Part shown: one piece after another, positions 35,549 to 60,409 of the stretch
How the letters are laid out: each line of letters begins with the position of its first letter
Numbering within the stretch: the stretch's first letter is position 1
Virus record (IMG/VR): IMGVR_UViG_3300012929_000019
Span: 1-60,409 of that record
DNA length: 60,409 nucleotides
Strand: one strand, 5' to 3'
DNA from: a virus
Taxonomy: Duplodnaviria > Caudoviricetes
Made by a program: the position numbers and the translations under genes
The notes under the pieces: generated by a model
Seen by the model: only the letters and a program-made list of their open reading frames with translations
What the model was told of the DNA's origin: nothing
The model's database searches: none

Positions 35549-35814
35549 GTGGGTGGTGCCGCCCTGATGTGATCAACGCCAATCGCCGCGCCAAAAATAA
35601 ATTTCTCCCGTCCACGAATATTTCGCGAGCATACTCCGATCGCGAGCCCATGCCACCCTTTTTCGCGTGATATGAAAAAAATAACCGTGGTACACACATA
35701 AGCTATTCAAAGCTAAGAAGAAAACATGAATTTTGCGCATGAACGGGTGGGACGTGCACGCCATTTGGCAGCAACGAAACCCTATAAAAAGGCCTAAAAC
35801 GCACGATATAGACA

Positions 35815-36100
35815 CCTTTCTTTAATAGTATTTACCAATATTAGTAGATAAAGAGGTATAGGGATTTAAAGAGAGGCCTTGTATGTAAATATACCATATA
35901 AAGGTTTAGCCCCCTTTGGCAATAAAGTTCGATAAAAACATTTTTAGAATTTATCAAAACACCTTATCTCTCTAACTATTAATGCCTCTTTATATTTTTG
36001 TGTACATCATTTTTAACCTAGCCTATGATGCGTCGCCCTTCATGCTATTGATGCATATCATGTTGATTATTCATTTACTTTTCAAAGAGGTTTATCAACG
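35815..36100. promoter_or_regulatory. AT-rich divergence region (divergent promoters and/or replication origin)
   Basis: Strand switch; very AT-rich; inverted repeats ATAAAGAGG (35848-35856) / CCTCTTTAT (35985-35993) and TTAATAGT / ACTATTAA. Confidence 0.55.
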
Positions 36101-42720: not shown

Positions 42721-43206
42721 ATGGGTAAAGTCTTCGTCATCTCCGACACGCACTTCGGGCACAAGAAGATCATTGAGTTCGAGAAGGCGGCGCGCCCGTT
42801 CGCAACGATCGAGGAGCATGATCGGGAATTGGTCGCGCGCTGGAACGCGACGGTCACGCAGCGCGATACGGTGTGGCATTTGGGCGATGTATTCTTCGGC
42901 AAGGATGGACACCACGTGCTCGCAGCGCTCAACGGCTATAAGAAGCTCGTGCTCGGCAACCATGATCATTATCCGCTCGCCGTGTATCAGCAGTATTTCG
43001 GCAAGATTTTTGGCGCAGCGGAATATCAGCATTGCTTGTTGACGCATGTGCCCGTGCATGAGAGTCAGATGCATCGTTACACGAAAAACATTCATGGGCA
43101 CATGCATAGTAAATCGATCCGTGATCCGCGCTACGTGTGCGTGTCGGCGGAACACACGTGGCTTGCTCCTGTCTTAATGACCGAAGTGTTGGGAGGATTA
43201 CGATGA
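42721..43206 (+). CDS. Calcineurin-like metallophosphoesterase
   Basis: SDTHFGH, HLGD, GNHD, THVP, HGHMH. Confidence 0.9.
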   Translation: MGKVFVISDTHFGHKKIIEFEKAARPFATIEEHDRELVARWNATVTQRDTVWHLGDVFFGKDGHHVLAALNGYKKLVLGNHDHYPLAVYQQYFGKIFGAAEYQHCLLTHVPVHESQMHRYTKNIHGHMHSKSIRDPRYVCVSAEHTWLAPVLMTEVLGGLR

Positions 43207-43426
43207 ATAGCTTCGCTTATTGGGCGTGCGGGTCGTGCGGGCGCGTTGCGACGCTGAGATTTCCTTCGATATACACCCTTGACCGGATCTGCAACTGTGC
43301 ATTTCCTCATCACGTGACGCAGATGAAGCCCTTGAATGACTTAGCCAAGCTGATTGATGAAGACGAACGGCAACGTCACTTTAAACACGAACGTAGAAAA
43401 CACGAGCATCAAGAGATGCTCAAGGA

Positions 43427-43927
43427 TTGGCCCCCATGACCCGAGATCAAGCGATTGAAATCGCGCGCGAGTGCGCGAAGGCAAAGCCTCAGAGCTATTA
43501 CGCGGAGCCCTTCGAGCCGCATGAATGGGTCGTGGATGCGATGATACGGGCCGGTAACACGATGCAAACGATCACGACGGAGCGCGATCGTTTGCAGCGG
43601 GAGAATGATTTTCTGCGCGCGCTCGTGGGCAATTCCGATAAAGCGTGCGTGTATTGCGGCTTGGGGGCTGAGTCCCAAGGCCAATGCGTGTTGGGATTTC
43701 CCGGATGCTCACGCGGCGATGACCAGATGCTCTGCCGGGAAGTCGGGGTCGCGATCGAGCGCGATGAATTAAAGCCCGATGCGGAACGTTATCGCTATTT
43801 GTGCACTGAGCGACTCGGGTGGTTCTCGCGCTGGGCCCCCGTCTACGATCCCGTGAACCCGAAGCGCACGGTGAAGGAATGTCTTGATGCGATACTCGAT
43901 CAATTACGAAAAGGAGAAGCGACATGA
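43427..43927 (+). CDS. Hypothetical protein (DAERYRYL motif)
   Basis: Part of an overlapping chain of small plus-strand ORFs. Confidence 0.55.
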   Translation: MAPMTRDQAIEIARECAKAKPQSYYAEPFEPHEWVVDAMIRAGNTMQTITTERDRLQRENDFLRALVGNSDKACVYCGLGAESQGQCVLGFPGCSRGDDQMLCREVGVAIERDELKPDAERYRYLCTERLGWFSRWAPVYDPVNPKRTVKECLDAILDQLRKGEAT

Positions 43928-45844: not shown

Positions 45845-46031
45845 TTAAATCAAAAGTGGAGGACGTGATGACTGAGCGCGGGTGCCACCCGGGCCGTCCA
45901 CAGCTCGTGATGACGCAATACCGCCGCCACATCTTGAGCGCCAAGAAGAGGTACGGCTCGGCGCGCTCGCTCATTCATTACCGCCGATTCATCGAGAGCT
46001 ACCTGTGGGCGAAGCGGCAGGTGCTGGCCAA

Positions 46032-48821
46032 ATGACTACCAAGTTTGCGATCATCGACCTCGAGACGTTCGCCATCATGCCACGCCCGCAATATCCGCCG
46101 GCGCCAGTGGGACTTGCTTGGTTGGTGGCTGGTAAGAAGGGGTACGAGCCATGCCGCTCGCCGTCGGAGCGTCAACGCTGCGCGAAGATGGTCAAGCAGT
46201 GGTACCGCGAGGGCATGGCACCGGTGTTTCACAACGCGAGCTTTGACCTGGACGTTTTAGAGACCCACCTAGGCGTCATGTGGCCTGCGGCTCATGAGGA
46301 CACGCTGCTGCTCGCGTATCTCTTTGAGCCGCGCGCGCCGACGTTCGCGTTGAAGCCCTTGGCTGAGCGGCTGCTGGGCGAGAGGCCAGACGAGCGCGAC
46401 GCCTTACGAGATTGGATCGTGGCCCACGTCAAGGGCGCGACGATGAAAACGTGGGGCGCCTACATCAGTGAGGCGCCGTTCGAGCTGGTGCGGCCGTATG
46501 CCATCGGCGACGTGGTGCGCACCGCCAAGCTCCATCAATTATTTTTAAGGCAGCTCAAGCTGGAGCCCAAGATGCAGGGCGCCTACGCGCGTGAGAAAAA
46601 GCTGACGCGGGTGCTCGTGAAGATGGAGCGGCGCGGCGTTCCGGTAGCCGTGCGCGCCCTCGCGCGCGACACCAAGCTCTGGCAGGCCCAGATGGGCGCC
46701 CTCGAGGGCCAGCTCTTCAAAGACCTCAAGGTGCCTAAGAAAGAGCGCAATGAGGAATTTGCGTGGTCAGGCGTGAACTTCGCCGAGCGGCTGTTAAAGA
46801 GCGGCATCGTTGACGAGCTGCCTCTCACGTTGAAGGGCAACCCGTCGACGAGCGCAGACAACCTGGGGCCGTTGCTCCCCCCTAAGATCGCGCACCGCTT
46901 GGAGCTCCGCGCGCAGCTGCAGACCTGCATCAGCACGTTCGCGCTCGCGTGGCTCGCGCAGGCCCAGGATGGCGGGCGGTTCTATGCGAGGTACAACCAG
47001 GTGCGCCAAAACAGTAACGGCAACGGCGGCATGGTTGGCACCACCACCGGGCGGTTGTCGCAAAGTCCCAACCTGCAGAACGTAATTCGAAGTGACAAGT
47101 CTGAGGAGGTGCCGCAGCTGCGCCGCTACCTGGTGCCACTCAACGGTTGGTGGTGGCTCAAGAGAGATTTTTGCTTTTCAGATGACACCGAGGTGTTGAC
47201 CGACGACGGCTGGAAGCTATTTAAGGATCTTGATAAGACAGAACGCATAGCTCAATGGCGCGTTGGTGAGGTATCATTTGCGAAACCTTTGGCTTATCAA
47301 ATGGTTCCTTATAAAGGGGACATGATAAACATCATAGGCCAACGCACGACTGATTTACTGGTATCACCAGACCATAAATGTTTACAGGTAAATGAAGATC
47401 GCGGTATTGAGTTCGTAAAAGCGATTGATTATTCTTTGGTCCATACACAGCAGGTACATGCAGGTGCGTTAGACAATGGTTTCCAGATACTTGAGCCAAT
47501 GAAGATACTCGTGGTAGCATTGCAAGCTGACGCTAAGGTGCTTTTCACTCGCGATGGGCGCCCACGAGCTATTTTTTATCTTAAAAAGCAACGCAAGATT
47601 GATCGTTTATTACAGGCTATTAAAAAATTCAAGCTTAAGCACACTGTCACGTACCCGCCTAGCAAACCAGGATTTAGTTGCATCACGTTCATGGTGCCGG
47701 CGCTAGCAGGATTACTCGATTTTATACGAAATGGTGAATCTTCAACGGCTATCAAAAAATTCAATATTGCAGCGTTGTTTGCAACTGATTTATCATCGCG
47801 TCAACGCTTTGTTCGTGAACTTCAATTTTGGGATGGCACGAAAGGTCCTTGTGACGGATGGGCATATACCACGACGGTAAAGCACAATGCTGACGTGATA
47901 CAGGCTGTAGCAGCGGTATCAGATATTCGTTCTACCTGTCATGAAACGTTGCTGCCATCTGGAAAACAATTTTATACCATTGGCCTTACAGATCGCGTCA
48001 ACCGTTCGTGGACCAAGTGCTATCAAAAGCTGTCCGTGCCTTATGATGGGGTCATCTATTGCGTAACTATGCCATGGAGCACGGTGATCGTTAGACGCAA
48101 CGGAAAGGTGATGGTAACTGGGCAATCGCAGCAGGAGTTCCGCATCTTCGCCCACTATGAGGGTGGTGAGCTGCTCGCGCGGTATAAGGCGCAGCCCGAC
48201 ATCGACGTCCACGTGGTTACGGGGCAGATCTTGAAGGAGCGCGCTGGCATCGAGCTCGCGCGTCGTGCGATGAAGGACGTCAACTTTGGGGTGCTCTACG
48301 CGATGGGCCGTGAGAAGATGGCGCGCAAGCTCAACCTAGATGACCTGACGGCGCAGCGCACGCTCGCTGCCTACCATCGCTCGCTGCCAGGGATCAAGCA
48401 GCTGCAGCGCCAGCTCGCCGCGTGCGCCGAGGCAGGTGAGCCCATCTACACGTGGGGCGGGCGCCGGTACTACGTCGAGCCGCCGAAGATGATGAACGTC
48501 AAGCGCCACGGCGTGACGCGGTTGGTCGAGCAGACCTTCGAGTACAAGCTCTTGAACCTGCTGGTGCAGGGCAGCGCGGCCGATGCCACGAAGGAGGCGA
48601 CCGTGCGCTATGATGAGACGGGTTGGAACGAGGACGATAAGGGCCCGCTGTTGTTGCAGGTCCATGACGAGCTCAACACGATGGCACTGGCCGCGCACCG
48701 GCAGGAGGCGATGCGGGTCTTGCGCGAGGCGATGACGTCGATCGAGCTCGACGTGCCGCTGCTGTCGGACGGCAGCGCGTCGCGGGTCTCGTGGAACGAC
48801 GTAAAAGATGTGACGTGGTGA
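46032..48821 (+). CDS. polA: Family A DNA polymerase with 3'-5' exonuclease, intein-containing
   Basis: IDLET exo I, TGRLS..PNLQN, motif A DF|SQQE.R, motif B R..K.VNFG.LY, motif C QVHDE. Confidence 0.95.
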   Translation: MTTKFAIIDLETFAIMPRPQYPPAPVGLAWLVAGKKGYEPCRSPSERQRCAKMVKQWYREGMAPVFHNASFDLDVLETHLGVMWPAAHEDTLLLAYLFEPRAPTFALKPLAERLLGERPDERDALRDWIVAHVKGATMKTWGAYISEAPFELVRPYAIGDVVRTAKLHQLFLRQLKLEPKMQGAYAREKKLTRVLVKMERRGVPVAVRALARDTKLWQAQMGALEGQLFKDLKVPKKERNEEFAWSGVNFAERLLKSGIVDELPLTLKGNPSTSADNLGPLLPPKIAHRLELRAQLQTCISTFALAWLAQAQDGGRFYARYNQVRQNSNGNGGMVGTTTGRLSQSPNLQNVIRSDKSEEVPQLRRYLVPLNGWWWLKRDFCFSDDTEVLTDDGWKLFKDLDKTERIAQWRVGEVSFAKPLAYQMVPYKGDMINIIGQRTTDLLVSPDHKCLQVNEDRGIEFVKAIDYSLVHTQQVHAGALDNGFQILEPMKILVVALQADAKVLFTRDGRPRAIFYLKKQRKIDRLLQAIKKFKLKHTVTYPPSKPGFSCITFMVPALAGLLDFIRNGESSTAIKKFNIAALFATDLSSRQRFVRELQFWDGTKGPCDGWAYTTTVKHNADVIQAVAAVSDIRSTCHETLLPSGKQFYTIGLTDRVNRSWTKCYQKLSVPYDGVIYCVTMPWSTVIVRRNGKVMVTGQSQQEFRIFAHYEGGELLARYKAQPDIDVHVVTGQILKERAGIELARRAMKDVNFGVLYAMGREKMARKLNLDDLTAQRTLAAYHRSLPGIKQLQRQLAACAEAGEPIYTWGGRRYYVEPPKMMNVKRHGVTRLVEQTFEYKLLNLLVQGSAADATKEATVRYDETGWNEDDKGPLLLQVHDELNTMALAAHRQEAMRVLREAMTSIELDVPLLSDGSASRVSWNDVKDVTW
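47172..48125 (+). mobile_element. Intein in Pol A motif A (318 aa, Gln-terminated, LAGLIDADG-like core)
   Basis: DF|CFSDDTEVLT..GWK...VSPDH...ALQADA...LQFWDG...YDG.IYCV......VRRNGK...TGQ|SQQE; lower GC than flanks. Confidence 0.92.
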
Positions 48822-51853: not shown

Positions 51854-52097
51854 GGCGGATCTTCATGAGATGGCCGACGCTTTGGCCGATTTGATTTGGA
51901 CCGCATGCGGTACCGCGCATTATTGTGGCGTGCCGCTCGATCTGGTGTGGGACGAGGTCAAGCGCGCCAATCTTGAAAAAGTGAGGCTGGTGCGCGGCGC
52001 TGATCAGACTCAGAAGAACTGGCGCGTCGACGTGATCACGAAGCCAGCCGGTTGGCGGCCGCCTGACCACCGTCGTGCGCTGGGGCTAGATAAGTGA
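51684..52097 (+). CDS. MazG/PRA-PH-like dNTP pyrophosphohydrolase
   Basis: V.KFH.KF, EELDEF, ADALADL....G, WDEV.RAN..K, KP.GW.PPD. Confidence 0.85.
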   Translation: MMTMFQDVAKFHEKFDVPVALSEGGGQLPQVPSREVLDYRERFMQEELDEFKKASLEADLHEMADALADLIWTACGTAHYCGVPLDLVWDEVKRANLEKVRLVRGADQTQKNWRVDVITKPAGWRPPDHRRALGLDK

Positions 52098-53524
52098 GTA
52101 AGAAACGACTTACCGCGCTCGGATGTCACATCTACGCTGGGGGATTCAGCTTAGGCGTGCGCCAGCATTTCGACGTGCTCGCGCACCTCGAGGAATGGAA
52201 CTTCGGCGTCGAGACGGCGCGCAAGAACCTGAAGATTCCCGTACACGTGGGCAAGCCCGAGATGTGGCCAGTGGCGGACTACGCGGGCAAGGTGGATTTT
52301 TTGTACGCGAACCCACCGTGCGCCGTTTGGAGTCAGGGCGCTGGCCGCATGGGCGGGCTGTGGCGCACGGATCCGCGCGTACAACATTGGATCAACGTGC
52401 TGGAGCTGCTCGACAAGATCAGGCCCAAGGTGTGGGCGTGCGAATCGGTGCGCGGCGCTTACGGGCGCGGGCGGTCGCTTACCGAGCCATTCATCATCCG
52501 CGCAGCGCGCAAGGGATACCGCGCGACGCATGTCTTAGTGAACGGTCTCGAGCATGGCGTTCCACAGTCGCGCCCTAGGTATTTCTTGGTGCTAAGCCAG
52601 GTAGACCTTCCGTGGGCAGCGACTGGCCTCAAGCACTCGATGACGATCGCCGATGCGTGGAGGCGGCTGCCGAAGCGCGTGACGATGCCGACGACTAAAA
52701 CCTACTTTCATCAGATCTTGAAGCACTCGCGTGCTGGGGAGGATCTGCGCACCACGTTCAACCGGGTGATGGACCCTGAGAAGTTGATAGTTAAAGAGAA
52801 CGGCTGCGTCCAAGGCCGGCCAGCCTTCAGCGTCAAGCGGCTGCGGACGGAGGGGCAGAGTCACGTGATCACGGGTGGGATGAGTTTCGTGCATCCGACC
52901 AAGCACCGATTTTTGACGGTGGAGGAACAGCAGCTCCTCTGCACGTACCCACCTGGTTTTATCTTCTATGGCGCCATCTCCGGCCAATACGCGCAGATCG
53001 GCAAAGCCGTGATGCCCGCAACTGCCGAATATCTCGCGCGCGTGGTGGCGCACGGCCTTAGGCGCAACAAAAAGCCGCCCGCGCTCTCCGCGGAGGAGGT
53101 GACGATCCTGCGTGACCAGGTGCTGAGGCGCGACGTTGAGAGGTATTCAGGCCCGGTCTTTGAGATGCCGGTGGTACAACCAAAGCAAGAGGAGCCAGAC
53201 ATGGCGAAGAAAACGACGAGCAAAAAGAATGGTAAAGGCGACGGTAAAAGTAACGGTAAGAGCAAGGGCAACGGTAAGAGTAAAACGGTAGCGTTGCCCA
53301 ATATCCCAGGTGAGACGCTCAAGGCCTATCAGAAGCGCTTAGATCACGCACCGGTATCGACGCACAAGGGCAGCGGGTACCGCATCCGCGAGATGCTGGT
53401 GAAGGAGATGCCGACCGACAAGATCCTGGCCACGATCCATAAAGAGTTCCCACAGAGCAAGGCGACGAGCTCAGACGTGAGCTGGAACCGCGCTAAGCTA
53501 GCTAAGCAGGGAGGTGCCCCGTGA
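52094..53524 (+). CDS. C5 cytosine DNA methyltransferase-like protein with C-terminal basic DNA-binding extension
   Basis: YAGGF.LG (motif I variant), ANPPC (IV), ESV (VI), PQSRPRYF (VIII), R.LT.EE, QIGKAV (X). Confidence 0.8.
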   Translation: MSKKRLTALGCHIYAGGFSLGVRQHFDVLAHLEEWNFGVETARKNLKIPVHVGKPEMWPVADYAGKVDFLYANPPCAVWSQGAGRMGGLWRTDPRVQHWINVLELLDKIRPKVWACESVRGAYGRGRSLTEPFIIRAARKGYRATHVLVNGLEHGVPQSRPRYFLVLSQVDLPWAATGLKHSMTIADAWRRLPKRVTMPTTKTYFHQILKHSRAGEDLRTTFNRVMDPEKLIVKENGCVQGRPAFSVKRLRTEGQSHVITGGMSFVHPTKHRFLTVEEQQLLCTYPPGFIFYGAISGQYAQIGKAVMPATAEYLARVVAHGLRRNKKPPALSAEEVTILRDQVLRRDVERYSGPVFEMPVVQPKQEEPDMAKKTTSKKNGKGDGKSNGKSKGNGKSKTVALPNIPGETLKAYQKRLDHAPVSTHKGSGYRIREMLVKEMPTDKILATIHKEFPQSKATSSDVSWNRAKLAKQGGAP

Positions 53525-54243
53525 GCAGGGTACGCGGTAATGATGAAAGAGAGTTCGATACTACTCAGTTGCGTGAGAACGGGCGAGGCACGGTTATTCA
53601 CAGAGACTACATCGCGCATGTTATGCGCTGGGGTTTTGCACGGCGCATGATCACGAATCAGGATGAGGTACTTGAGGTCGGGTGCGGGCAGGACACGCCG
53701 CTGCTAAAGGTGATGTCTATCTATGCGAGCACGTACCCAAAAAGATACGTGGGAGTGGACCTCAATAAGCCTATTGGCCGCACGGCCACGCGCGCGTGGG
53801 CCACGTTGCATTGGGGATTTAATTTCATCAAGGACCATAAGAAGTTGGGCGGAGGATTTACCAAGGCGGTGTCCTTCGAAGTTATAGAGCATATGCAGAA
53901 GGCGTCAGGTGGTAAGCTGCTCAAGGGTATCTACGGACAGCTCCGTCCGGGCGGCCAGTTGTTTTTATCAACCCCGGTGTTCAATGGCAAGTTCCAAGCT
54001 AAGGTGCATATCCACGAGTACACGATCGACGAGCTCAAGCAGAGCATCACCAAGGCGGGGTTCAAGATCCAAGCTCGCTATGGTACCTTCATGAATATCA
54101 ACGACGTGAAGAAGGCGAGGCCTGAGCATCGCCAGGTGTGTGATGCGCTCAGGTGCTATTACGCGGACGATGTGCTTGCAACCTTCTTGGCGCCGCTCTA
54201 TCCGGACCTGTCGCGCAATAATTTCTGGGTACTGTCTAAATAG
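53521..54243 (+). CDS. Class I SAM-dependent methyltransferase
   Basis: VLEVGCG, YVGVD, FEVIEH, L.PGG.LFLSTP, H.HEY. Confidence 0.85.
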   Translation: MSRVRGNDEREFDTTQLRENGRGTVIHRDYIAHVMRWGFARRMITNQDEVLEVGCGQDTPLLKVMSIYASTYPKRYVGVDLNKPIGRTATRAWATLHWGFNFIKDHKKLGGGFTKAVSFEVIEHMQKASGGKLLKGIYGQLRPGGQLFLSTPVFNGKFQAKVHIHEYTIDELKQSITKAGFKIQARYGTFMNINDVKKARPEHRQVCDALRCYYADDVLATFLAPLYPDLSRNNFWVLSK

Positions 54244-54263
54244 ATAAAACTTGAGGAGAAAAA

Positions 54264-55184
54264 ATGATCATCATCCTAGAGGGCCCGGACGGCGCCGGAA
54301 AGACCGTCCTCGCCACCATATTAGACCAGCGGCTCACGCGCCTCGAACACGTCGTCGCGACGCAGCACCACGGGCCCTACGCCGGGTGCCAGGACCCGTC
54401 GCTCAACTATCTGGCGAGCCTGGAGCGGCAGCGCTATGGCAGGTACCGGAGCGGCATCAAGATCTTGGACCGCTGCTGGCTCTCTGAAATTCCTTATGGC
54501 CGCGCGCTGCGCGGTGGCGCGGACCGCGTGGGTACCGCCTCACGGCGCATGCTCGAGCGCGTGGCGCTGCGCCTAGGCGCGTTCGTGATCCTGTGTCGGC
54601 CGTCTTTTGAGACGTGCCAGCGCAACTGGGCCCAGCGCCGAGCTTACGAGCTGGCCCAGGATAACGAGACCATCAAAAAGATCTATGACGGATACGCGCC
54701 TGAGGCCCTCGCGAGCGCCACCAGCCTCCCCGTGGTCGCTTACGACTACACGGGCACGCGCGACGCGCTCGAGCCCGCGCTCGCGCAGATCATCGCCTTG
54801 AAAGACTACGCGCCGCCTGAGGCGGGCGTTGGCCGCTGGCACCCGGACTCGACGCTGCTGGTGGGCGATCGCGTGAGCCGGTACGGATTTAACGACCTTC
54901 CCTTCGTGTCGTTCACCCGCGGCGGGTGCTCGCAGTGGCTCGCCCAGAAACTCGAGGGCTGGGGCGTGCCTGAGTCCAAGCTCTACTGGGTCAACGCGCT
55001 CGGGCTAGACCCGGAGTTCTTAGGCCATGAGGGCGCGCCTAAGCGCGTGGTAGCGCTCGGGGCCAACGCGGCCAGGTGGTGCGAGCGCGCCGGCATCGGC
55101 TTTACGCGGGTGGCCCACCCGCAGGCGCACAAGCGGTTTCGCTTCAACGAGGAATACGCGGATCTCAAGGAGGCGCTCTTATGA
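54264..55184 (+). CDS. dNMP (thymidylate-type) kinase fused to a UDG-superfamily domain
   Basis: IILEGPDGAGKT, DR.WLSE..Y; C-terminal LVGD...PF....G.S.WL...N....VVALG..A......HPQ. Confidence 0.8.
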   Translation: MIIILEGPDGAGKTVLATILDQRLTRLEHVVATQHHGPYAGCQDPSLNYLASLERQRYGRYRSGIKILDRCWLSEIPYGRALRGGADRVGTASRRMLERVALRLGAFVILCRPSFETCQRNWAQRRAYELAQDNETIKKIYDGYAPEALASATSLPVVAYDYTGTRDALEPALAQIIALKDYAPPEAGVGRWHPDSTLLVGDRVSRYGFNDLPFVSFTRGGCSQWLAQKLEGWGVPESKLYWVNALGLDPEFLGHEGAPKRVVALGANAARWCERAGIGFTRVAHPQAHKRFRFNEEYADLKEALL

Positions 55185-55978
55185 GGACCGTCAACTCACG
55201 GCACATGGACTACGCGTGGCTCGCGGCGTTGGATCATATCGAGTGGGGCGGCGATACCGTCACGCCGCGCGGGCAGCCCACGAAGGAGCTCGTCTGCCAC
55301 ACGATGATCGTCGACATGACGCGGCCCGTGGTGACGGTCAAGGAGCGCCACCTTGGCTACCGGTTCATGTGCGCCGAGGCGGCGTGGCTGCTGTCGGGTG
55401 ACGACCGCGTGGAAACGATCGCGCCCTACTCGAAGACCATCGCCAACTTCTCAGATGACGGCGCGACGTTTTTTGGGGCCTACGGGCCCAAGCTGCGCGC
55501 GCAGCTAGACTACGTGGTCGGCTGCCTGCGCGATGATCCTCTGAGCCGCCAGGCGGTGGCCAACATCTGGCGCGAGAGCCCGCGGAAAACAAAAGACTAC
55601 CCGTGCCACCTGAGCACGCAGTTTTTGATCCGCGACGGACGGCTCCACCAGGTCGCGACGATGCGGTCGTCGGATTTATTTCTTGGTATCGTCTACGATA
55701 TTTTTAATTTTTCGATGTGGGCCGCGTACGTGGCGATCTGCCTAGGCGACCGGAACCTCAAGCTCGGAAATATCTACAATACCGCGGCGAGCCGCCACCT
55801 GTATGACACCAACGCTGCCGCCGCGACCGCGTGCCTCGCGGACCCAGCGGCTAAGTTCGAGTACGCCCCGTTCAGGTGGACGGAGTTCGTCGATAGCGAG
55901 GACCTCATTGACCACCTGTGGCGGCTGGCGCGTGGGCAGGTGTTGTTCCGTGAGTGGCTCAAGGAGCTCAGGGCATGA
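55181..55978 (+). CDS. Thymidylate synthase superfamily enzyme, Asp-type (candidate dCMP methyl/hydroxymethyltransferase)
   Basis: PRG..T.E, AE..W.LSG, GAYGP, SRQAV, PC, MRSSD.FLG..YD. Confidence 0.85.
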   Translation: MRTVNSRHMDYAWLAALDHIEWGGDTVTPRGQPTKELVCHTMIVDMTRPVVTVKERHLGYRFMCAEAAWLLSGDDRVETIAPYSKTIANFSDDGATFFGAYGPKLRAQLDYVVGCLRDDPLSRQAVANIWRESPRKTKDYPCHLSTQFLIRDGRLHQVATMRSSDLFLGIVYDIFNFSMWAAYVAICLGDRNLKLGNIYNTAASRHLYDTNAAAATACLADPAAKFEYAPFRWTEFVDSEDLIDHLWRLARGQVLFREWLKELRA

Positions 55979-56427
55979 GGATCGAGAAAGACGAGTGGTA
56001 CCTTGAGATCGCGAGGGTGGTCGCGCGCCGCAGCACGTGCGCGCGCCGCCAGGTCGGGTGCGTGCTGGTCGACGAGATCGGGAGGATCATGAGCACGGGG
56101 TTCAACGGCGTGCCGCGCGGCATGACGCACTGCACCGAGAGCCCGTGCGCGGGCGCGGGCCTGCCGTCGGGCACGGGCTTAGACCTATGCGCGAGCACCC
56201 ACGGCGAGGCTAACGCGCTGCTGCAGTGCCCTGACGTCGAGCGCGTCCACACGTGCTACTCGACCACCGAGCCGTGCGTTCATTGCGCCAAGCTCCTGAT
56301 GAACACGAGCTGCGAGCGCGTGCTCTATATAGAGCCGTACCCGGGCGACGCGGCAGCGCTCTGGCTCCGGACGCGCGGGCCCGGCACCTGGTCGCGCTTC
56401 CAAGCGCGCGTAAAGCGTCCGCCATAG
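55975..56427 (+). CDS. dCMP deaminase
   Basis: RSTC.RRQVG..LV, TGFNG.P.G, HGEANAL, PCVHC. Confidence 0.92.
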   Translation: MRIEKDEWYLEIARVVARRSTCARRQVGCVLVDEIGRIMSTGFNGVPRGMTHCTESPCAGAGLPSGTGLDLCASTHGEANALLQCPDVERVHTCYSTTEPCVHCAKLLMNTSCERVLYIEPYPGDAAALWLRTRGPGTWSRFQARVKRPP

Positions 56428-56451
56428 GCACAGGTTCGTTGGCCTGTAAAT

Positions 56452-56471
56452 AGCCCGGACAGGGCTTTTTT
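56452..56471 (+). terminator. Rho-independent terminator of the replication/nucleotide operon
   Basis: AGCCC-ggaca-GGGCT followed by a T-run; preceded by an ACAGG/CCTGT hairpin. Confidence 0.6.
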
Positions 56472-56572
56472 CCATAAAAGAGGGCTAGAAGGGCACTTTT
56501 TTTCACTAAAAAGGCTCAAGGCATGCCCTCGCCCCTATGTACAGCGTCGTGTGAAAACTATGTACAAAATTG

Positions 56573-56602
56573 TTGTATATCGGCGTCATTCAGGCTTAGA
56601 AT
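56573..56602 (+). promoter_or_regulatory. Putative sigma70 promoter for the large ncRNA / early operon
   Basis: TTGTAT-N18-TAGAAT; upstream direct repeat CTATGTACA x2. Confidence 0.55.
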
Positions 56603-56609
56603 GAGCACT

Positions 56610-57265
56610 GGTTGATTGATTATGAGATGGAGACCGGGCCCGTTCGAACGGGTACGCGCCGGGGCGCAGCGGGGACAGGGAGTTCCCATGGTGGTAGGGG
56701 ACGCACATAGCGCGGTGCGTCACGACGAGTACGGAGCTAAGGTAACGGGCGCGAGCGTAAGTCAGCCGACAGAGCTGCTGCCCGCGAGCGAGGTGTGAAG
56801 GAGGAACCCTTCACAACGATCCTGAAAGGGATCAACTCGCGAACGATGCGAAACCCAGCATCGACCAGTGACGGAAGTCGTAGAACCCGATCGCGCAAAA
56901 CCAACGCGATTTGAAAGCACGTCCAGCCGCGGCGCGATGAATCAAAGGGCTAGTAACTACGCGAGGTAGCAGCGCGACGACGAATGACAAAACGTTGTGA
57001 GGCGCGAAGTAGTCGGACTCGGACCCGCTAGCCGAGACAATGGGAAAAGGAAAATTTGATGAAGGCCGCGAGAGCGTTGCCAGTACCCGGAACGGGGCCG
57101 TGCCGCTCGATCGTCGTCAAGATCATCCGGAATAACCTGAGCCAGTACCTACGGAAACGTTGCAGGGTTGGGGTCGAGTAACAAGGAATAAGTGCTCACA
57201 CACAACAGACCTCGACCCTGTAACGCAATGCGCATTTGAAAACAAGAGTGCGCATTGCTGTTACA
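56610..57265 (+). ncRNA. Large highly structured ncRNA candidate (family unassigned)
   Basis: No credible ORF over ~670 nt; more than 12 hairpins with GNRA loops and plus-strand G:U pairs, e.g. 18-bp stem 57158-57175/57208-57225. Confidence 0.65.
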
Positions 57266-57280
57266 ACAATGGAGACGAAC

Positions 57281-57484
57281 ATGAGCAAAAAGCAAACTCC
57301 GCGTCGGAGTAAAAGATACAACGAAGTTGCGGCACAATTTGGTGATGAAGTCGCAGCGCAGTTTGGTGAAAACTTTATGGTGGTTGACGATCTCAATAGC
57401 TTAGTCGTCGTTAGTACCAAGAAAACGAAAAAACCTGTGGCTGGACGACGTTTTCGCGATGCTTATTTCGCAAACAAAGCGTGA
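57281..57484 (+). CDS. Small early hypothetical protein
   Basis: GGAG RBS; internal EVAAQFG duplication. Confidence 0.6.
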   Translation: MSKKQTPRRSKRYNEVAAQFGDEVAAQFGENFMVVDDLNSLVVVSTKKTKKPVAGRRFRDAYFANKA

Positions 57485-57517
57485 ATCAATAACTAAAATT
57501 CAATGGAGCGATGAATC

Positions 57518-57700
57518 ATGGACACGACCCTTTCGTTATTTCAAGTCGCGCTGGTGCTCGGGATGAGCATGAGCGCCACCGCAAACCTCGTGCGACGCAA
57601 ATTGCTCAAGCGCAAAGAGCGACGCAACAAGATCGATTTTTTCGAGGCGCAGGACGTGCAGGAGTACATCAGTCGGCAGAACCGGGAGCAAGCGACATGA
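57518..57700 (+). CDS. Small HTH (Xis/MerR-like) DNA-binding protein
   Basis: LSLFQVALVLGMS.SA..NLVRR..L......F...DV..YI. Confidence 0.6.
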   Translation: MDTTLSLFQVALVLGMSMSATANLVRRKLLKRKERRNKIDFFEAQDVQEYISRQNREQAT

Positions 57701-57861
57701 GCAAAAAACAATTCTTGAAGCGTCTCAATGCGATCGCGGATGAGTTGGATGACGTTGTTGATTACACACTGAAGGAGTATCCCGTGGGCGCCCTTGAGCT
57801 TCTTGACGCTGCGCAAACGATCGTGGAGTCAGTCATCGAAACTATGGAGCAAACAACGTGA
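57697..57861 (+). CDS. Small hypothetical protein
   Basis: ATGA overlap with the upstream gene; MSKKQFLKRLNAIADELDD. Confidence 0.5.
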   Translation: MSKKQFLKRLNAIADELDDVVDYTLKEYPVGALELLDAAQTIVESVIETMEQTT

Positions 57862-58060
57862 TCATATCAGTATCAGGAGGGTGCGTGCGCGGCTGCGTCG
57901 CTGCGGCCCGCAGGGCCATCGGCGTGAAGCTCGCTGATTCGCGCGAGTTTTTGCGCTCTGGTGGTGAGGACGGGCTCTATCGGGTTCATCTGGAAGGCGG
58001 CGCGATCGTCGAGGTGACGATCATCCGCCGCTCGCGGGTTCAAGTTGCGGAGGTGCTGCC

Positions 58061-58318
58061 ATGACGTTCGAAGAATTTCAGGCGACCGGGTGCGACGTGG
58101 CGGACCTCAAGCGTTATTCTCCGGACATCGCTAACCAGATGGCGGACTATGACGCTCCTCGGCCCGGGCGCGTGTACGCGGAGTTCCTCTATATAGAGCG
58201 CGAGCCCGACGGGCGGTGGTACCTGCTGATCGCCAACGAGGACTGGCTGGGCAAGCCATTGGCGACGCTCGAACGCCGGTTGTATGACTTTGGGGTAGCT
58301 GAGGGGTATTTCGAATGA
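58061..58318 (+). CDS. Hypothetical protein
   Basis: GGAGG RBS; YIE....W.L.I.N......L..LE..LY.F...EG. Confidence 0.65.
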   Translation: MTFEEFQATGCDVADLKRYSPDIANQMADYDAPRPGRVYAEFLYIEREPDGRWYLLIANEDWLGKPLATLERRLYDFGVAEGYFE

Positions 58319-58510
58319 GCTGGGCCTTGGCTGGCTGAGTTTTCAAAAAAGACTTTGGACATGGAAATCAAGTTAATACAACAAGGAGAATGGACGCAAG
58401 AGAATAACTAAGACTAAAACAGACCTTATAAAGGCAGGTGCAAATATGGGGGCGCGCACGTGAGGCGCCCTCTTTGTTACAACGACGAGTATGGTTTATT
58501 GTCAATATAA

Positions 58511-58801
58511 ATGGAGCAAATGCAAATGTCAACTTCCAAGAAGTCGAAAAAGAGCGTGAGCACGAAGGGCGTTAAGAAGACGGCGAAGAAGATCATCAAG
58601 ATCCGGGTCAAGAACGAGGCCCTGGGCCGCGAGGGCACGATCACCCGCTTCATGAAGGAGCGGATCCTGGCGGGTGAAGAGAACGCCGCCATCTTGAAGG
58701 CCGCAACCAAGAAGTTCCGTAGCGCGAAGATCGGCAAGGGCTACCCCTCTTGGTACCGCAGCCAGATGAAAAAGCAGGGGCTCCTTCGCACCAGCGCTTG
58801 A
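58511..58801 (+). CDS. Small Lys-rich DNA-binding (histone-like) protein, homologous to the MTase C-terminal domain
   Basis: K-rich tail plus E......IL....K.F...K......SW.R....KQG. Confidence 0.65.
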   Translation: MEQMQMSTSKKSKKSVSTKGVKKTAKKIIKIRVKNEALGREGTITRFMKERILAGEENAAILKAATKKFRSAKIGKGYPSWYRSQMKKQGLLRTSA

Positions 58802-58827
58802 AGGAAAGTTGCTTGAGAAGGGAATAC

Positions 58828-58856
58828 GGGGGCGCGCATGCCGGCGCCTCCTTTTT
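58828..58856 (+). terminator. Rho-independent terminator
   Basis: GGGGGCGC-gcatgccg-GCGCCTCC-TTTTTT; a related hairpin lies at ~58448-58475. Confidence 0.75.
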
Positions 58857-58896
58857 TATTTTGGGGTGGTTGGCGTCCAAGCATCGAGGTGCTGTG

Positions 58897-59226
58897 ATGA
58901 AGAAATTTACCGCTGGTCAAAAAGTAATCCTGAAGGCCAACGCGGATGAAGGGTGGCCCGAAGAAACAGGAAAATTTGTGGGATACGAGGACAAAGGAGG
59001 ATTCCCAGACATGTGCGTGGTAATGGTAGATGATGCGTATAGGCGGAGCCCCACCGACGACGGATTACGCGAGATACTGTTGGAGGGCATTGAAGCTGCG
59101 CCCGCGAAAAAAGGTGGTAATGGCCTAGCGCCATGGCATCCATTCGTTGCCACGCCAAACAAGGGAACATGCGGATCATGTGGGAGACCAAGGTCGAGTC
59201 CAATACACAACGCAATGGGTGGGTAA
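58897..59226 (+). CDS. Hypothetical protein (SH3-like N-terminus, C-terminal H..C..C..H Zn site)
   Basis: GAGG RBS; KF.AGQKV.L; HPF......CGSCG.....IH. Confidence 0.55.
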   Translation: MKKFTAGQKVILKANADEGWPEETGKFVGYEDKGGFPDMCVVMVDDAYRRSPTDDGLREILLEGIEAAPAKKGGNGLAPWHPFVATPNKGTCGSCGRPRSSPIHNAMGG

Positions 59227-59817: not shown

Positions 59818-60144
59818 ATGGTGGACCGGGGGATTCGCGTCCAAGGAACTAGCTTACGCGCACGCATTGACGCGTCAATAAATGGAGTCATGATCATGTC
59901 ATACGATACTTGTGCAGAACCAGGAACGGCAGAGTTTGACCGGCGCATGGAGGTCGCTCGTGAGGCCATCCGGCGCTCAATCAGGCGCTCATACACGGAT
60001 TATCGGCGCCACCAGATGCACGTCATCCCAGGCGCGTATCGCCACGCGGGAGCCATCCGGGCGGCCGTCGCGCACGTGCGCCGTGAACATCCGTTCACGG
60101 AAGCATCCACCATCAACGAGGTGCTCAAGGAGCTTTTGTCATGA
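59818..60144 (+). CDS. Hypothetical protein (start probably ~59890)
   Basis: Co-oriented early ORF with GGAG RBS before MIMSYD. Confidence 0.45.
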   Translation: MVDRGIRVQGTSLRARIDASINGVMIMSYDTCAEPGTAEFDRRMEVAREAIRRSIRRSYTDYRRHQMHVIPGAYRHAGAIRAAVAHVRREHPFTEASTINEVLKELLS

Positions 60145-60409
60145 GCAATCATTCAACAATCAGTGTGACCTTTGCGAATGCGGAGACCATGGAACTATCA
60201 CGCACGGCCTATTACAATCCGCGCTCGCCTTTCCAGAAACGGGTGCAGCCTGAGACCTTCGTCGCGGTCGGACGTTACCACCTCGTCGTGGGCTATCGTG
60301 ATCTCGCGGTCTCCGTTGATGAGGAGCCGGCGCGCCCCCAGGAGCAGCCCTGGGTGCGGGGGTGGTTCAGTCGCTCGCAACAGAAAGACCTCCGTGACGC
60401 GCGGCTCAA

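Follow-up and report, generated by a model that had tools for sequence, protein, structure and literature searches.

A conserved noncoding stretch with signs of selection on RNA structure, heading a row of small genes in a soil phage

To our knowledge, few large structured RNAs are known from phages (GOLLD and ROOL), and their functions are unknown. Among phage leaders, that of T7 carries the RNase III site R0.3 upstream of gene 0.3, and in lambda the pL leader carries nutL upstream of N, with leader lengths of ~430 nt at most in T7 and ~220 nt in lambda. HK022 put, P4 CI and P1 c4 are leader RNA elements of ~65-80 nt, situated downstream of an early promoter and ahead of the first genes, which act on the polymerase or on the transcript that contains them; short repeated sequences are used by P4, and the immunity RNAs of P4 and P1 belong to temperate elements. 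GOLLD and ROOL have been described as phage or prophage RNAs, without a known function, that often lie near tRNA islands (an association that is typical, not obligatory), and GOLLD combines a conserved 3' region with a variable 5' region. A survey of IMG/VR intergenic regions (PMC10690425) describes candidate structured RNAs of 29-151 nt, for which matches in at least three IMG/VR regions were required. Here we describe an element of about 670 nt that begins at position 56610 of IMG/VR virus record IMGVR_UViG_3300012929_000019, the DNA of which was found in a soil metagenome. The window analyzed is the entire record, 60,409 nt in length, classed as linear and 100% complete.

The element is noncoding, and the structure predicted for its plus strand is very probably real and under selection at the RNA level. 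The reading that we favor, and to which we give about an even chance, is that of a structured 5' leader of ~670 nt for an operon of small genes, with a pair of hairpins serving processing or stability at its 3' end. We class the element as a new sequence family within a known kind, the structured noncoding RNAs of phages, with the leader of an early operon as its most likely identity.

The element resembles GOLLD and ROOL in being phage-borne, several hundred nucleotides long, free of open reading frames (ORFs) and rich in hairpins. Furthermore, the pairing of a 98% conserved 3' module with a diverged upstream part in one of its relatives echoes the conserved 3' and variable 5' regions described for GOLLD. 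In contrast with both classes, it matches neither Rfam model, even with E-values up to 10 allowed, has no tRNA gene in its window (0 found by ARAGORN in the 60,409 nt), and abuts a ribosome-binding site without a terminator of its own. GOLLD and ROOL self-assemble into multimers made of RNA only, and their extensive consensus structures are supported by covariation across many homologues; for the element, the changes that bear on covariation are a single compensatory pair, two exchanges between G:U and G-C and a hairpin that is rebuilt, all drawn from partial relatives in two sequencing runs. Its likeness to the T7 and lambda leaders lies in the succession of a putative promoter, a long untranslated leader and long imperfect hairpins before a first small gene, the product of which has an arginine-/lysine-rich N-terminus. 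A long hairpin of approximately two helical turns before the first gene, as in leaders of the RNase III type, has its counterpart here in the abutting hairpins A (17+5 pairs) and B (13 pairs). The element nevertheless differs from these leaders in its ~670 nt and far greater degree of structure, in a first ORF that matches no N-type or other family and, relative to lambda, in that no boxA/boxB-like site was identified within it. A 9-mer that occurs twice in the element, GCCAGTACC, is reminiscent of P4, but no complementary partner of it beyond 5-7 nt was seen and, unlike P4 and P1, the phage has no integrase that we could find. Finally, the element shares with the candidates of PMC10690425 its origin in IMG/VR phage contigs and the use of conserved intergenic structure as evidence, but at ~670 nt and with no IMG/VR relative in our scans it would, by the terms given there, be missed as a whole by that survey.

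A first-pass annotation of this DNA, made from sequence alone, had described the region as the longest GC-rich ORF-free stretch of the window. Its length is borne out, since no other part of the record extends as far as 56507-57195 (689 nt) before an ORF of at least 70 aa occurs in one of the six frames, and the runner-up has 285 nt; the attribute GC-rich is not, the G+C content of the region (0.573) being no higher than that of the genome. The element, which takes up about 1% of this gene-dense phage genome, is purine-rich and U-poor on the plus strand (A 0.276, G 0.323, U 0.151). Each plus frame is interrupted by 11-12 stop codons and each minus frame by 7-10. Pfam and PHROG searches left 16 of the 17 different ORF pieces from the region without a match, the remaining one having a weak PHROG match (E 0.025) over 13 residues. 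In addition, the indels seen in relatives within the stretch measure 1, 1, 1, 1, 2 and 1 nt, none of them a multiple of three. These results support the annotated noncoding character of the region, and the idea of a coding remnant was dropped, with no reading-frame trace or protein family found.

The conservation described below might still stem from one or more very small proteins, such as those encoded by a 31-aa ORF at 57040-57135 or by a 58-aa ORF from the ATG at 56622. The 31-aa ORF was indeed picked up by gene callers, as was one of 36 aa, and one relative (X3) shows no difference in 57040-57133. However, the 31-aa ORF matches only itself among 1.84 billion representative proteins, and the longest ORF of the region (60 aa, 56616-56798) has a single match among 5.8 billion proteins, the 36-aa call of the same phage; outside their own record the two candidate ORFs have no relatives, and neither is preceded by a convincing ribosome-binding site. 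Moreover, the relatives carry non-triplet indels in 56874-56901 and at 57023, and these ORFs would account for at most ~270 of the 670 nt, all of which makes a protein-based explanation highly improbable.

To compare the predicted fold with shuffled sequences, a check that the first-pass annotation had proposed, we folded the full 656 nt (56610-57265) of each strand. The minimum free energy (MFE) of the plus strand is -258.5 kcal/mol against a shuffle mean of -219.6 (z -5.61, with 0 of 20 shuffles as good), and a repeat with separate dinucleotide shuffles yielded z -5.9 (-258.5 against a shuffle mean of -224.5 kcal/mol). The corresponding values for the minus strand are -230.4 and -211.9 kcal/mol (z -3.20), and nine coding windows of equal length from the same genome, folded as sense strand, range from z -1.97 to +1.59. 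Folding of sub-parts, with 30 shuffles each, revealed an uneven signal that is strong in the 3' hairpin pair (57150-57268; z -8.5 on the plus and -3.3 on the minus strand), moderate in the 5' body (56610-56945; -2.9 and -1.0, and 56780-56915; -4.2 and -2.7) and absent from the middle of the region (56940-57140; +1.4 and +1.6). Two longer parts gave -3.9 and -1.3 (56610-57140) and -2.9 on either strand (56630-57105). The plus strand outperforms the minus strand over the whole region and in 56610-57140, 56610-56945, 57150-57268 and 56780-56915.

All 12 helices listed in the first-pass annotation are present. One of them, given as an 18-bp stem at 57158-75/57208-25, is confirmed as a stem but comprises 17 pairs (57159-75/57208-24). 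The three GNRA loops found (56824-27, 56873-76 and 57155-58), the 18 G:U pairs on the plus strand among 206 MFE pairs and the exact double occurrence of GCCAGTACC in the window (at 57079 and 57141, 62 nt apart) likewise agree with what had been annotated. The 5' body (56610-56945, plus strand) is moderately stable and is made of many short hairpins. A perfect 14-bp palindrome (56639-52) within the annotated helix 56638-53 is followed by helices 56700-06/56715-21, 56794-801/56808-15, 56818-23/56828-33, 56844-49/56858-63, 56869-72/56877-80 and 56889-95/56905-11. Hairpins 56794-815 and 56818-33 are closed by 56788-92/56836-40 into a predicted three-way junction, with helix pair probabilities of 0.95-0.99. 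The middle part (56946-57140, plus strand) contains helices 56977-82/56993-98 and 57018-22/57032-36, helix 57055-62/57114-21 enclosing 57072-76/57104-08, and the first copy of GCCAGTACC (57079-87); its conservation reaches 97% although it is thermodynamically unstable. Two long-range helices (56639-45/57090-96 and 56649-55/57083-89, plus strand) are predicted to close the body with ensemble pair probabilities of 0.98-0.99; each of their arms is near-palindromic, so that two local hairpins form an alternative.

The second copy of GCCAGTACC (57141-57149, plus strand) is followed by an ACG-GAAA-CGT hairpin and then by the most stable and most conserved part of the element, a very stable double hairpin at 57159-57258 with 98% conservation. 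Hairpin A (57159-57224, plus strand) has a 17-pair stem with 3 G:U, an internal loop and 5 more pairs (pair probability 1.00), and hairpin B (57225-57258, plus strand), a 13-pair stem (57225-37/57246-58) with 2 G:U (pair probability 0.99), abuts it without a linker. Hairpin B is not followed by a U run; the sequence next to it is UGUUACAACAAUGG.

We compared contigs of three soil runs with 55000-58900 and obtained partial relatives in two other soil studies, here termed X2 and X3. In X2, a single 1,111-nt contig agrees with 57144-57269 at all but 2 of the 126 nt, after which 234 other letters replace 57270-57517, that is, the ribosome-binding site and the first ORF. The match resumes in the following 60-aa gene with 16 differences in 180 nt (57518-57697). 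Conservation in relatives is 97-98% for the element against 91% for the neighboring gene. The 571 nt of the X2 contig upstream of 57144 are less than 80% like the window; the last 30 letters of this part have 17 positions in common with it, including a 10-nt block. From these sequences, the body seems to be present but diverged in X2, with the hairpin module almost unchanged. As a separate observation, the breakpoints in X2 coincide exactly with the 3' limit of the hairpin module (57269/57270) and with the start codon ATG of the gene that follows, in the manner of a cassette exchange. The X3 contigs are short and cover 56798-56930 (9 differences and 6 gaps), 56852-56891 (1 and 1) and 56954-57133 (4 differences and 1 gap in 180 nt).

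The changes found in these relatives preserve the predicted pairing, none of the five listed stem substitutions breaking a pair. In helix 57018-22/57032-36, which had been named before any relative was known, 57021 G>A occurs together with 57033 C>T and converts a G-C into an A-U pair. Two single changes, 56862 C>T (G56845-C to G:U) and 56996 T>C (G56979:U to G-C), keep pairing on the plus strand only, and the substitutions at 56898 and 56899 lie in a loop. The X3 variants retain helices 56844-63 and 56889-911; in the latter hairpin, changes around 56892-56901 put GAAA in place of a 9-nt loop, one variant having an extra U in the 5' arm only and the other also an extra A in the 3' arm, which adds a pair. 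Together with the fold z-scores and the conservation, these changes support the earlier proposal of selection on plus-strand RNA structure.

The same changes bear on two readings in which the plus-strand RNA plays no part. A functional transcript of the minus strand, antisense to the leader and the first genes, would draw on promoter-like sites at 57544-57515 (9/12) and 58532-58504 (11/12), terminator-like sites at 57310-57296 and 56535-56517, all on the minus strand, and a minus-strand fold that also beats its shuffles (z -3.2). Yet nearly every part folds better on the plus strand, the G:U pairs and the two G:U/G-C changes fit that strand only, and the neighboring genes all lie on it, leaving such a transcript with only a slight probability. 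A DNA-level element (operator palindromes, a replication origin, a packaging site or the stem-loops of a cassette-exchange boundary) would be in keeping with the perfect palindrome at 56639-52, the long inverted repeats of 57159-57258 and the replacement of the first ORF in X2 exactly where the hairpin module stops, and the G-C to A-T compensation fits a DNA cruciform equally well. It is at odds with the two changes that pair only as plus-strand G:U and with the 18 stem G:U pairs, which are A-C mismatches on the other strand, and the GNRA loops and the replacement of a loop by GAAA are features of RNA. Furthermore, the region has neither iterons nor an AT-rich unwinding region, an AT-rich candidate control region lies at 35.6-36.1 kb instead, and the terminase genes are ~40 kb away. 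We therefore regard a DNA-level role as very improbable.

The case for a leader, in turn, rests on the surroundings of the element. As had been annotated, a terminator precedes it: a hairpin at 56452-66 with a T run (56452-56472, plus strand) that closes the upstream operon. An AT-rich spacer separates this terminator from the structured stretch and contains two exact copies of CTATGTACA, 23 nt apart (56535-56566, plus strand) and the sole exact copies in the window, which might serve as an operator or belong to a promoter. A putative promoter, TTGTAT-18-TAGAAT (56573-56602, plus strand), was recognized by eye and is weak. Apart from the upstream hairpin 56452-66, no plus-strand terminator-like site was found in 55900-57900, no hairpin within the element is followed by the U run of an intrinsic terminator or attenuator, and the scan found neither terminator nor promoter between the element and the first small gene. 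The Shine-Dalgarno sequence GGAG follows 12 nt past hairpin B, and the next plus-strand terminator-like site, at 58828-58861, is the likely end of a transcription unit beginning with the leader. A terminator before the element, none inside it, GGAG 12 nt on and the next terminator at 58828 together lead us to read the element as a 5' leader.

In the proposed mechanism, transcription would start in the AT-rich spacer, past the terminator of the nucleotide-metabolism operon, cross the multi-hairpin body (56610-57140) and then the two abutting long hairpins (57159-57258), and continue into the first ORF without meeting a terminator. By analogy with the RNase III sites of the T7 and lambda early leaders, the hairpin pair would act as a processing or stability element, and cleavage there would free the upstream body as a stable RNA and give the mRNA a defined 5' end. 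The conserved body might then act as RNA, whether by regulating the operon or by serving as a decoy or scaffold. Given how tightly phage genomes are packed, the conservation of 670 noncoding bases in front of an operon points to a job done by RNA; their position suggests control or processing of the early transcript, or a decoy acting early. If the element is merely a long processed leader, it would be a large but ordinary variant of the practice of T7 and lambda.

Several observations weigh against this reading. The promoter that the first-pass annotation had placed before the element was not recovered, a consensus scan of 55900-57900 finding no plus-strand site. Among the sequencing runs, no RNA run contained the stretch, and the transcription, strand and ends of the transcript are those we infer from the DNA. 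The role of RNase III in processing at the hairpin pair is likewise carried over from T7 and lambda by analogy. Two candidate modes of leader regulation were rejected: masking of the ribosome-binding site by 57105-19 (-16.5 kcal/mol) is equalled by 21% of 300 shuffles, and a two-state switch at 57218-24 (-54.5 against -52.3 kcal/mol) leaves the alternative state with 5% ensemble probability. The middle ~200 nt (56940-57140) fold no better than shuffles, and when 602 windows of 300 nt are compared after G+C correction, the best ones from the region rank 4th and 5th and are not extreme. Because sense strands fold better than antisense strands throughout the genome (mean strand difference -6.6 kcal/mol in areas with plus-strand genes), the asymmetry between plus and minus folds is partly compositional. 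The comparative evidence comes from short contigs with a depth of 2.7-4.7 and seven substitutions listed for the region, in a list that omits some differences near contig ends; covariation is based on two to three partial relatives, and the high conservation beside an exchanged ORF may in part reflect recent recombination.

Some of these points would also suit a functionless spacer or the remnant of a decayed gene with fortuitous hairpins, in line with the chance-level fold of the middle part, local windows that are not extreme and the lack of homologues in the collections searched. Against such a spacer or remnant stand the parts of the element that exceed adjacent coding sequence on the same contig in conservation, the changes that preserve structure, a z-score of -5.9 where controls range from -2.0 to +1.6, and the absence of any reading-frame trace or protein family; we consider it improbable. 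Even when taken jointly, a DNA element, a relic, micro-ORFs and an antisense RNA are an unlikely source of the observations.

The principal competitor of the leader reading, rather unlikely in our estimate, holds that the element belongs to a new class of large ornate RNAs, similar in scale to GOLLD and ROOL, and that it stands alone and acts in trans as scaffold, cage or decoy once freed by processing. It would be favored by the size of the structured region (~550-650 nt), by its many short hairpins with GNRA and palindromic loops, by the whole-stretch z of about -5.6 to -5.9, by the predicted long-range helices (0.98-0.99) that close a domain of ~460 nt, by the 97-98% conservation in relatives against 91% in the neighboring gene, by the ~1% of its genome that a gene-dense phage spends on it, and by a 3' hairpin pair that could shield a released RNA. 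On the other hand, the element lacks its own terminator and is separated from the next gene by no promoter, no Rfam model matches it even at E-values up to 10, no tRNA genes lie nearby, its middle part lacks a stable fold, and no homologue family could be assembled. In X2, moreover, identity is below 80% upstream of 57144 and 98% in the 3' hairpins, so the whole is not evolving as a unit. The single autonomous ornate RNA of ~650 nt suggested by the first-pass annotation is not supported, given the uneven fold, the missing terminator and the absence of tRNA genes. A more specific version, an undescribed class of large, autonomously folding RNAs in a rare soil-phage lineage, cut out at the double hairpin and acting early in trans, is doubtful; such a class might, for instance, form a self-assembling scaffold or a decoy for a host factor or defense system. 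A further, unrelated large phage RNA would widen the known set with a member from a soil phage without a cultured relative and in an early-expression position.

Searches of known RNA families and sequence collections yielded no relative beyond the partial ones in the two soil runs. No Rfam covariance model, including those for riboswitches, ribozymes, introns, 6S, tmRNA and RNase P, matched the whole window at the gathering score, which upholds the earlier statement that no family could be assigned. With E-values up to 10, the sole match in 56400-57400 was to a Bacillus sRNA model; it scored 20.8 bits where the gathering score is 60, and was at chance level and on the minus strand of the spacer. 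A blastn search with 56430-57290 found no match in 50,697 phage records or 72,556 plasmids, and searches of IMG/VR, JGI metagenomes and GTDB found nothing like the region. The homologue search by BLAST and nhmmer that had been called for was negative in the collections; the partial relatives come from the contigs of the two soil runs. In eight scans of viral contigs, queries with the dCMP deaminase, the helix-turn-helix (HTH) gene and TerL returned 0 relatives, and a 22-mer of the hairpin module had 0 matches both in the viral-contig scan and in a genome scan. The DNA pattern GCCAGTACC-gap-GATCATCCGG gave 9 chance matches in viral contigs.

Loci gathered by alignment of flanking genes comprised 80 viral and 80 metagenome loci for the ThyA-like gene, and 1 viral and 5 distant genome loci for the SNF2 gene. 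Searches of fetched loci (80, 160, 9 and 6) with the region by blastn and nhmmer produced short chance matches only. An ORF-free gap of at least 450 nt was present in 2 of 169 loci, both AT-rich (GC 0.29 and 0.31) and unrelated. Among the 80 viral records, 50 were searched with TerL, and none of these 50 proved to be kin of the phage (best E 3.9e-15, 32% identity).

Several other candidates were examined and dropped. A CsrA/RsmA sponge of the CsrB/RsmZ type was rejected on the count of GGA motifs (17, against 16.4 +/- 2.9 in 500 shuffles), the RNA of a retron, diversity-generating retroelement (DGR) or group II intron for lack of an adjacent reverse transcriptase, and a temperate immunity context for lack of a tyrosine integrase. 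A promoter motif common to other intergenic regions was also examined and dropped.

Downstream of the element, a row of small plus-strand genes begins at ATG 57281. The first ORF (57271-57484 with its Shine-Dalgarno GGAG, plus strand) encodes 67 aa without a Pfam or PHROG match. Its product has a lysine-/arginine-rich N-terminus, and a 24-nt tandem repeat (57323-45/57347-69) within the ORF encodes EVAAQFGD/EVAAQFGE. The 60-aa gene at 57518-57700 (plus strand) is HTH-like, with matches to HTH_17 (E 0.0044, below the cut-off) and PHROG 66 (E 0.023). By hand count, 10 of the 14 listed X2 differences in this gene occupy third codon positions, and this preponderance indicates that the gene is real and coding. 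On the minus strand, a promoter-like TTGACA-17-TATATT (58532-58504, 11/12) faces the small plus-strand genes and a terminator-like hairpin (57310-57296) is located just to the right of the leader; the two could delimit an antisense transcript of ~1.2 kb.

The record as a whole represents an uncultured and probably virulent soil phage of 60 kb. No cultured phage is close to it (best TerL identity 36%), no tyrosine integrase or reverse transcriptase (RVT_1) was found in the record, and the nearest relatives of the flanking genes show 65-71% identity for SNF2 and 68% for the ThyA-like gene. The minus strand, from ~35.5 kb down to 1, carries the structural genes, including terminase (~40 kb from the RNA element), portal and a head protein of 1512 aa. 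Genes for replication and nucleotide metabolism occupy 36.1 to 56.4 kb on the plus strand, including primase, family A DNA polymerase, SNF2 helicase, C5 methylase, methyltransferase, thymidylate-kinase-like, ThyA-like and dCMP deaminase genes. The last of this block, dCMP deaminase (55954-56427, plus strand), matches Pfam PF00383 (E 1.4e-18) and PHROG 174 (E 1.7e-39). Between the divergent structural and replication blocks, 35600-36100 is AT-rich and ORF-free, and is a likelier site than the RNA element for the main promoters or an origin.

Each end of the record truncates an open reading frame (1-525 on the minus strand and 60141-60407 on the plus strand), the two frames facing each other, and another assembly with the same proteins has 60,991 nt; the record is probably short of a few hundred bases. 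The most stable plus-strand 300-nt window after G+C correction lies elsewhere, at 43401-43700 (residual z -3.0), in an area with two 17-nt inverted repeats (sites 43044-43105 and 43560-43599). In the family A DNA polymerase (979 aa, 45882-48821, plus strand), two matched stretches are separated by a ~320-aa insert (residues ~431-754) similar to inserts in PHROGs for ribonucleotide reductase, PhoH and thymidylate synthase, which looks like an intein or a homing-endonuclease insertion; G+C dips to 0.462 in 47001-48000, in the region of this gene. Finally, the plus-strand run at 52094-56427 (C5 DNA methylase, SAM methyltransferase, thymidylate-kinase-like, ThyA-like and dCMP deaminase genes) suggests a DNA base-modification pathway. 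Its ThyA-like protein scores only 72 bits to Thymidylat_synt, and some of the relatives of this protein have 425-459 aa and may be fused forms.

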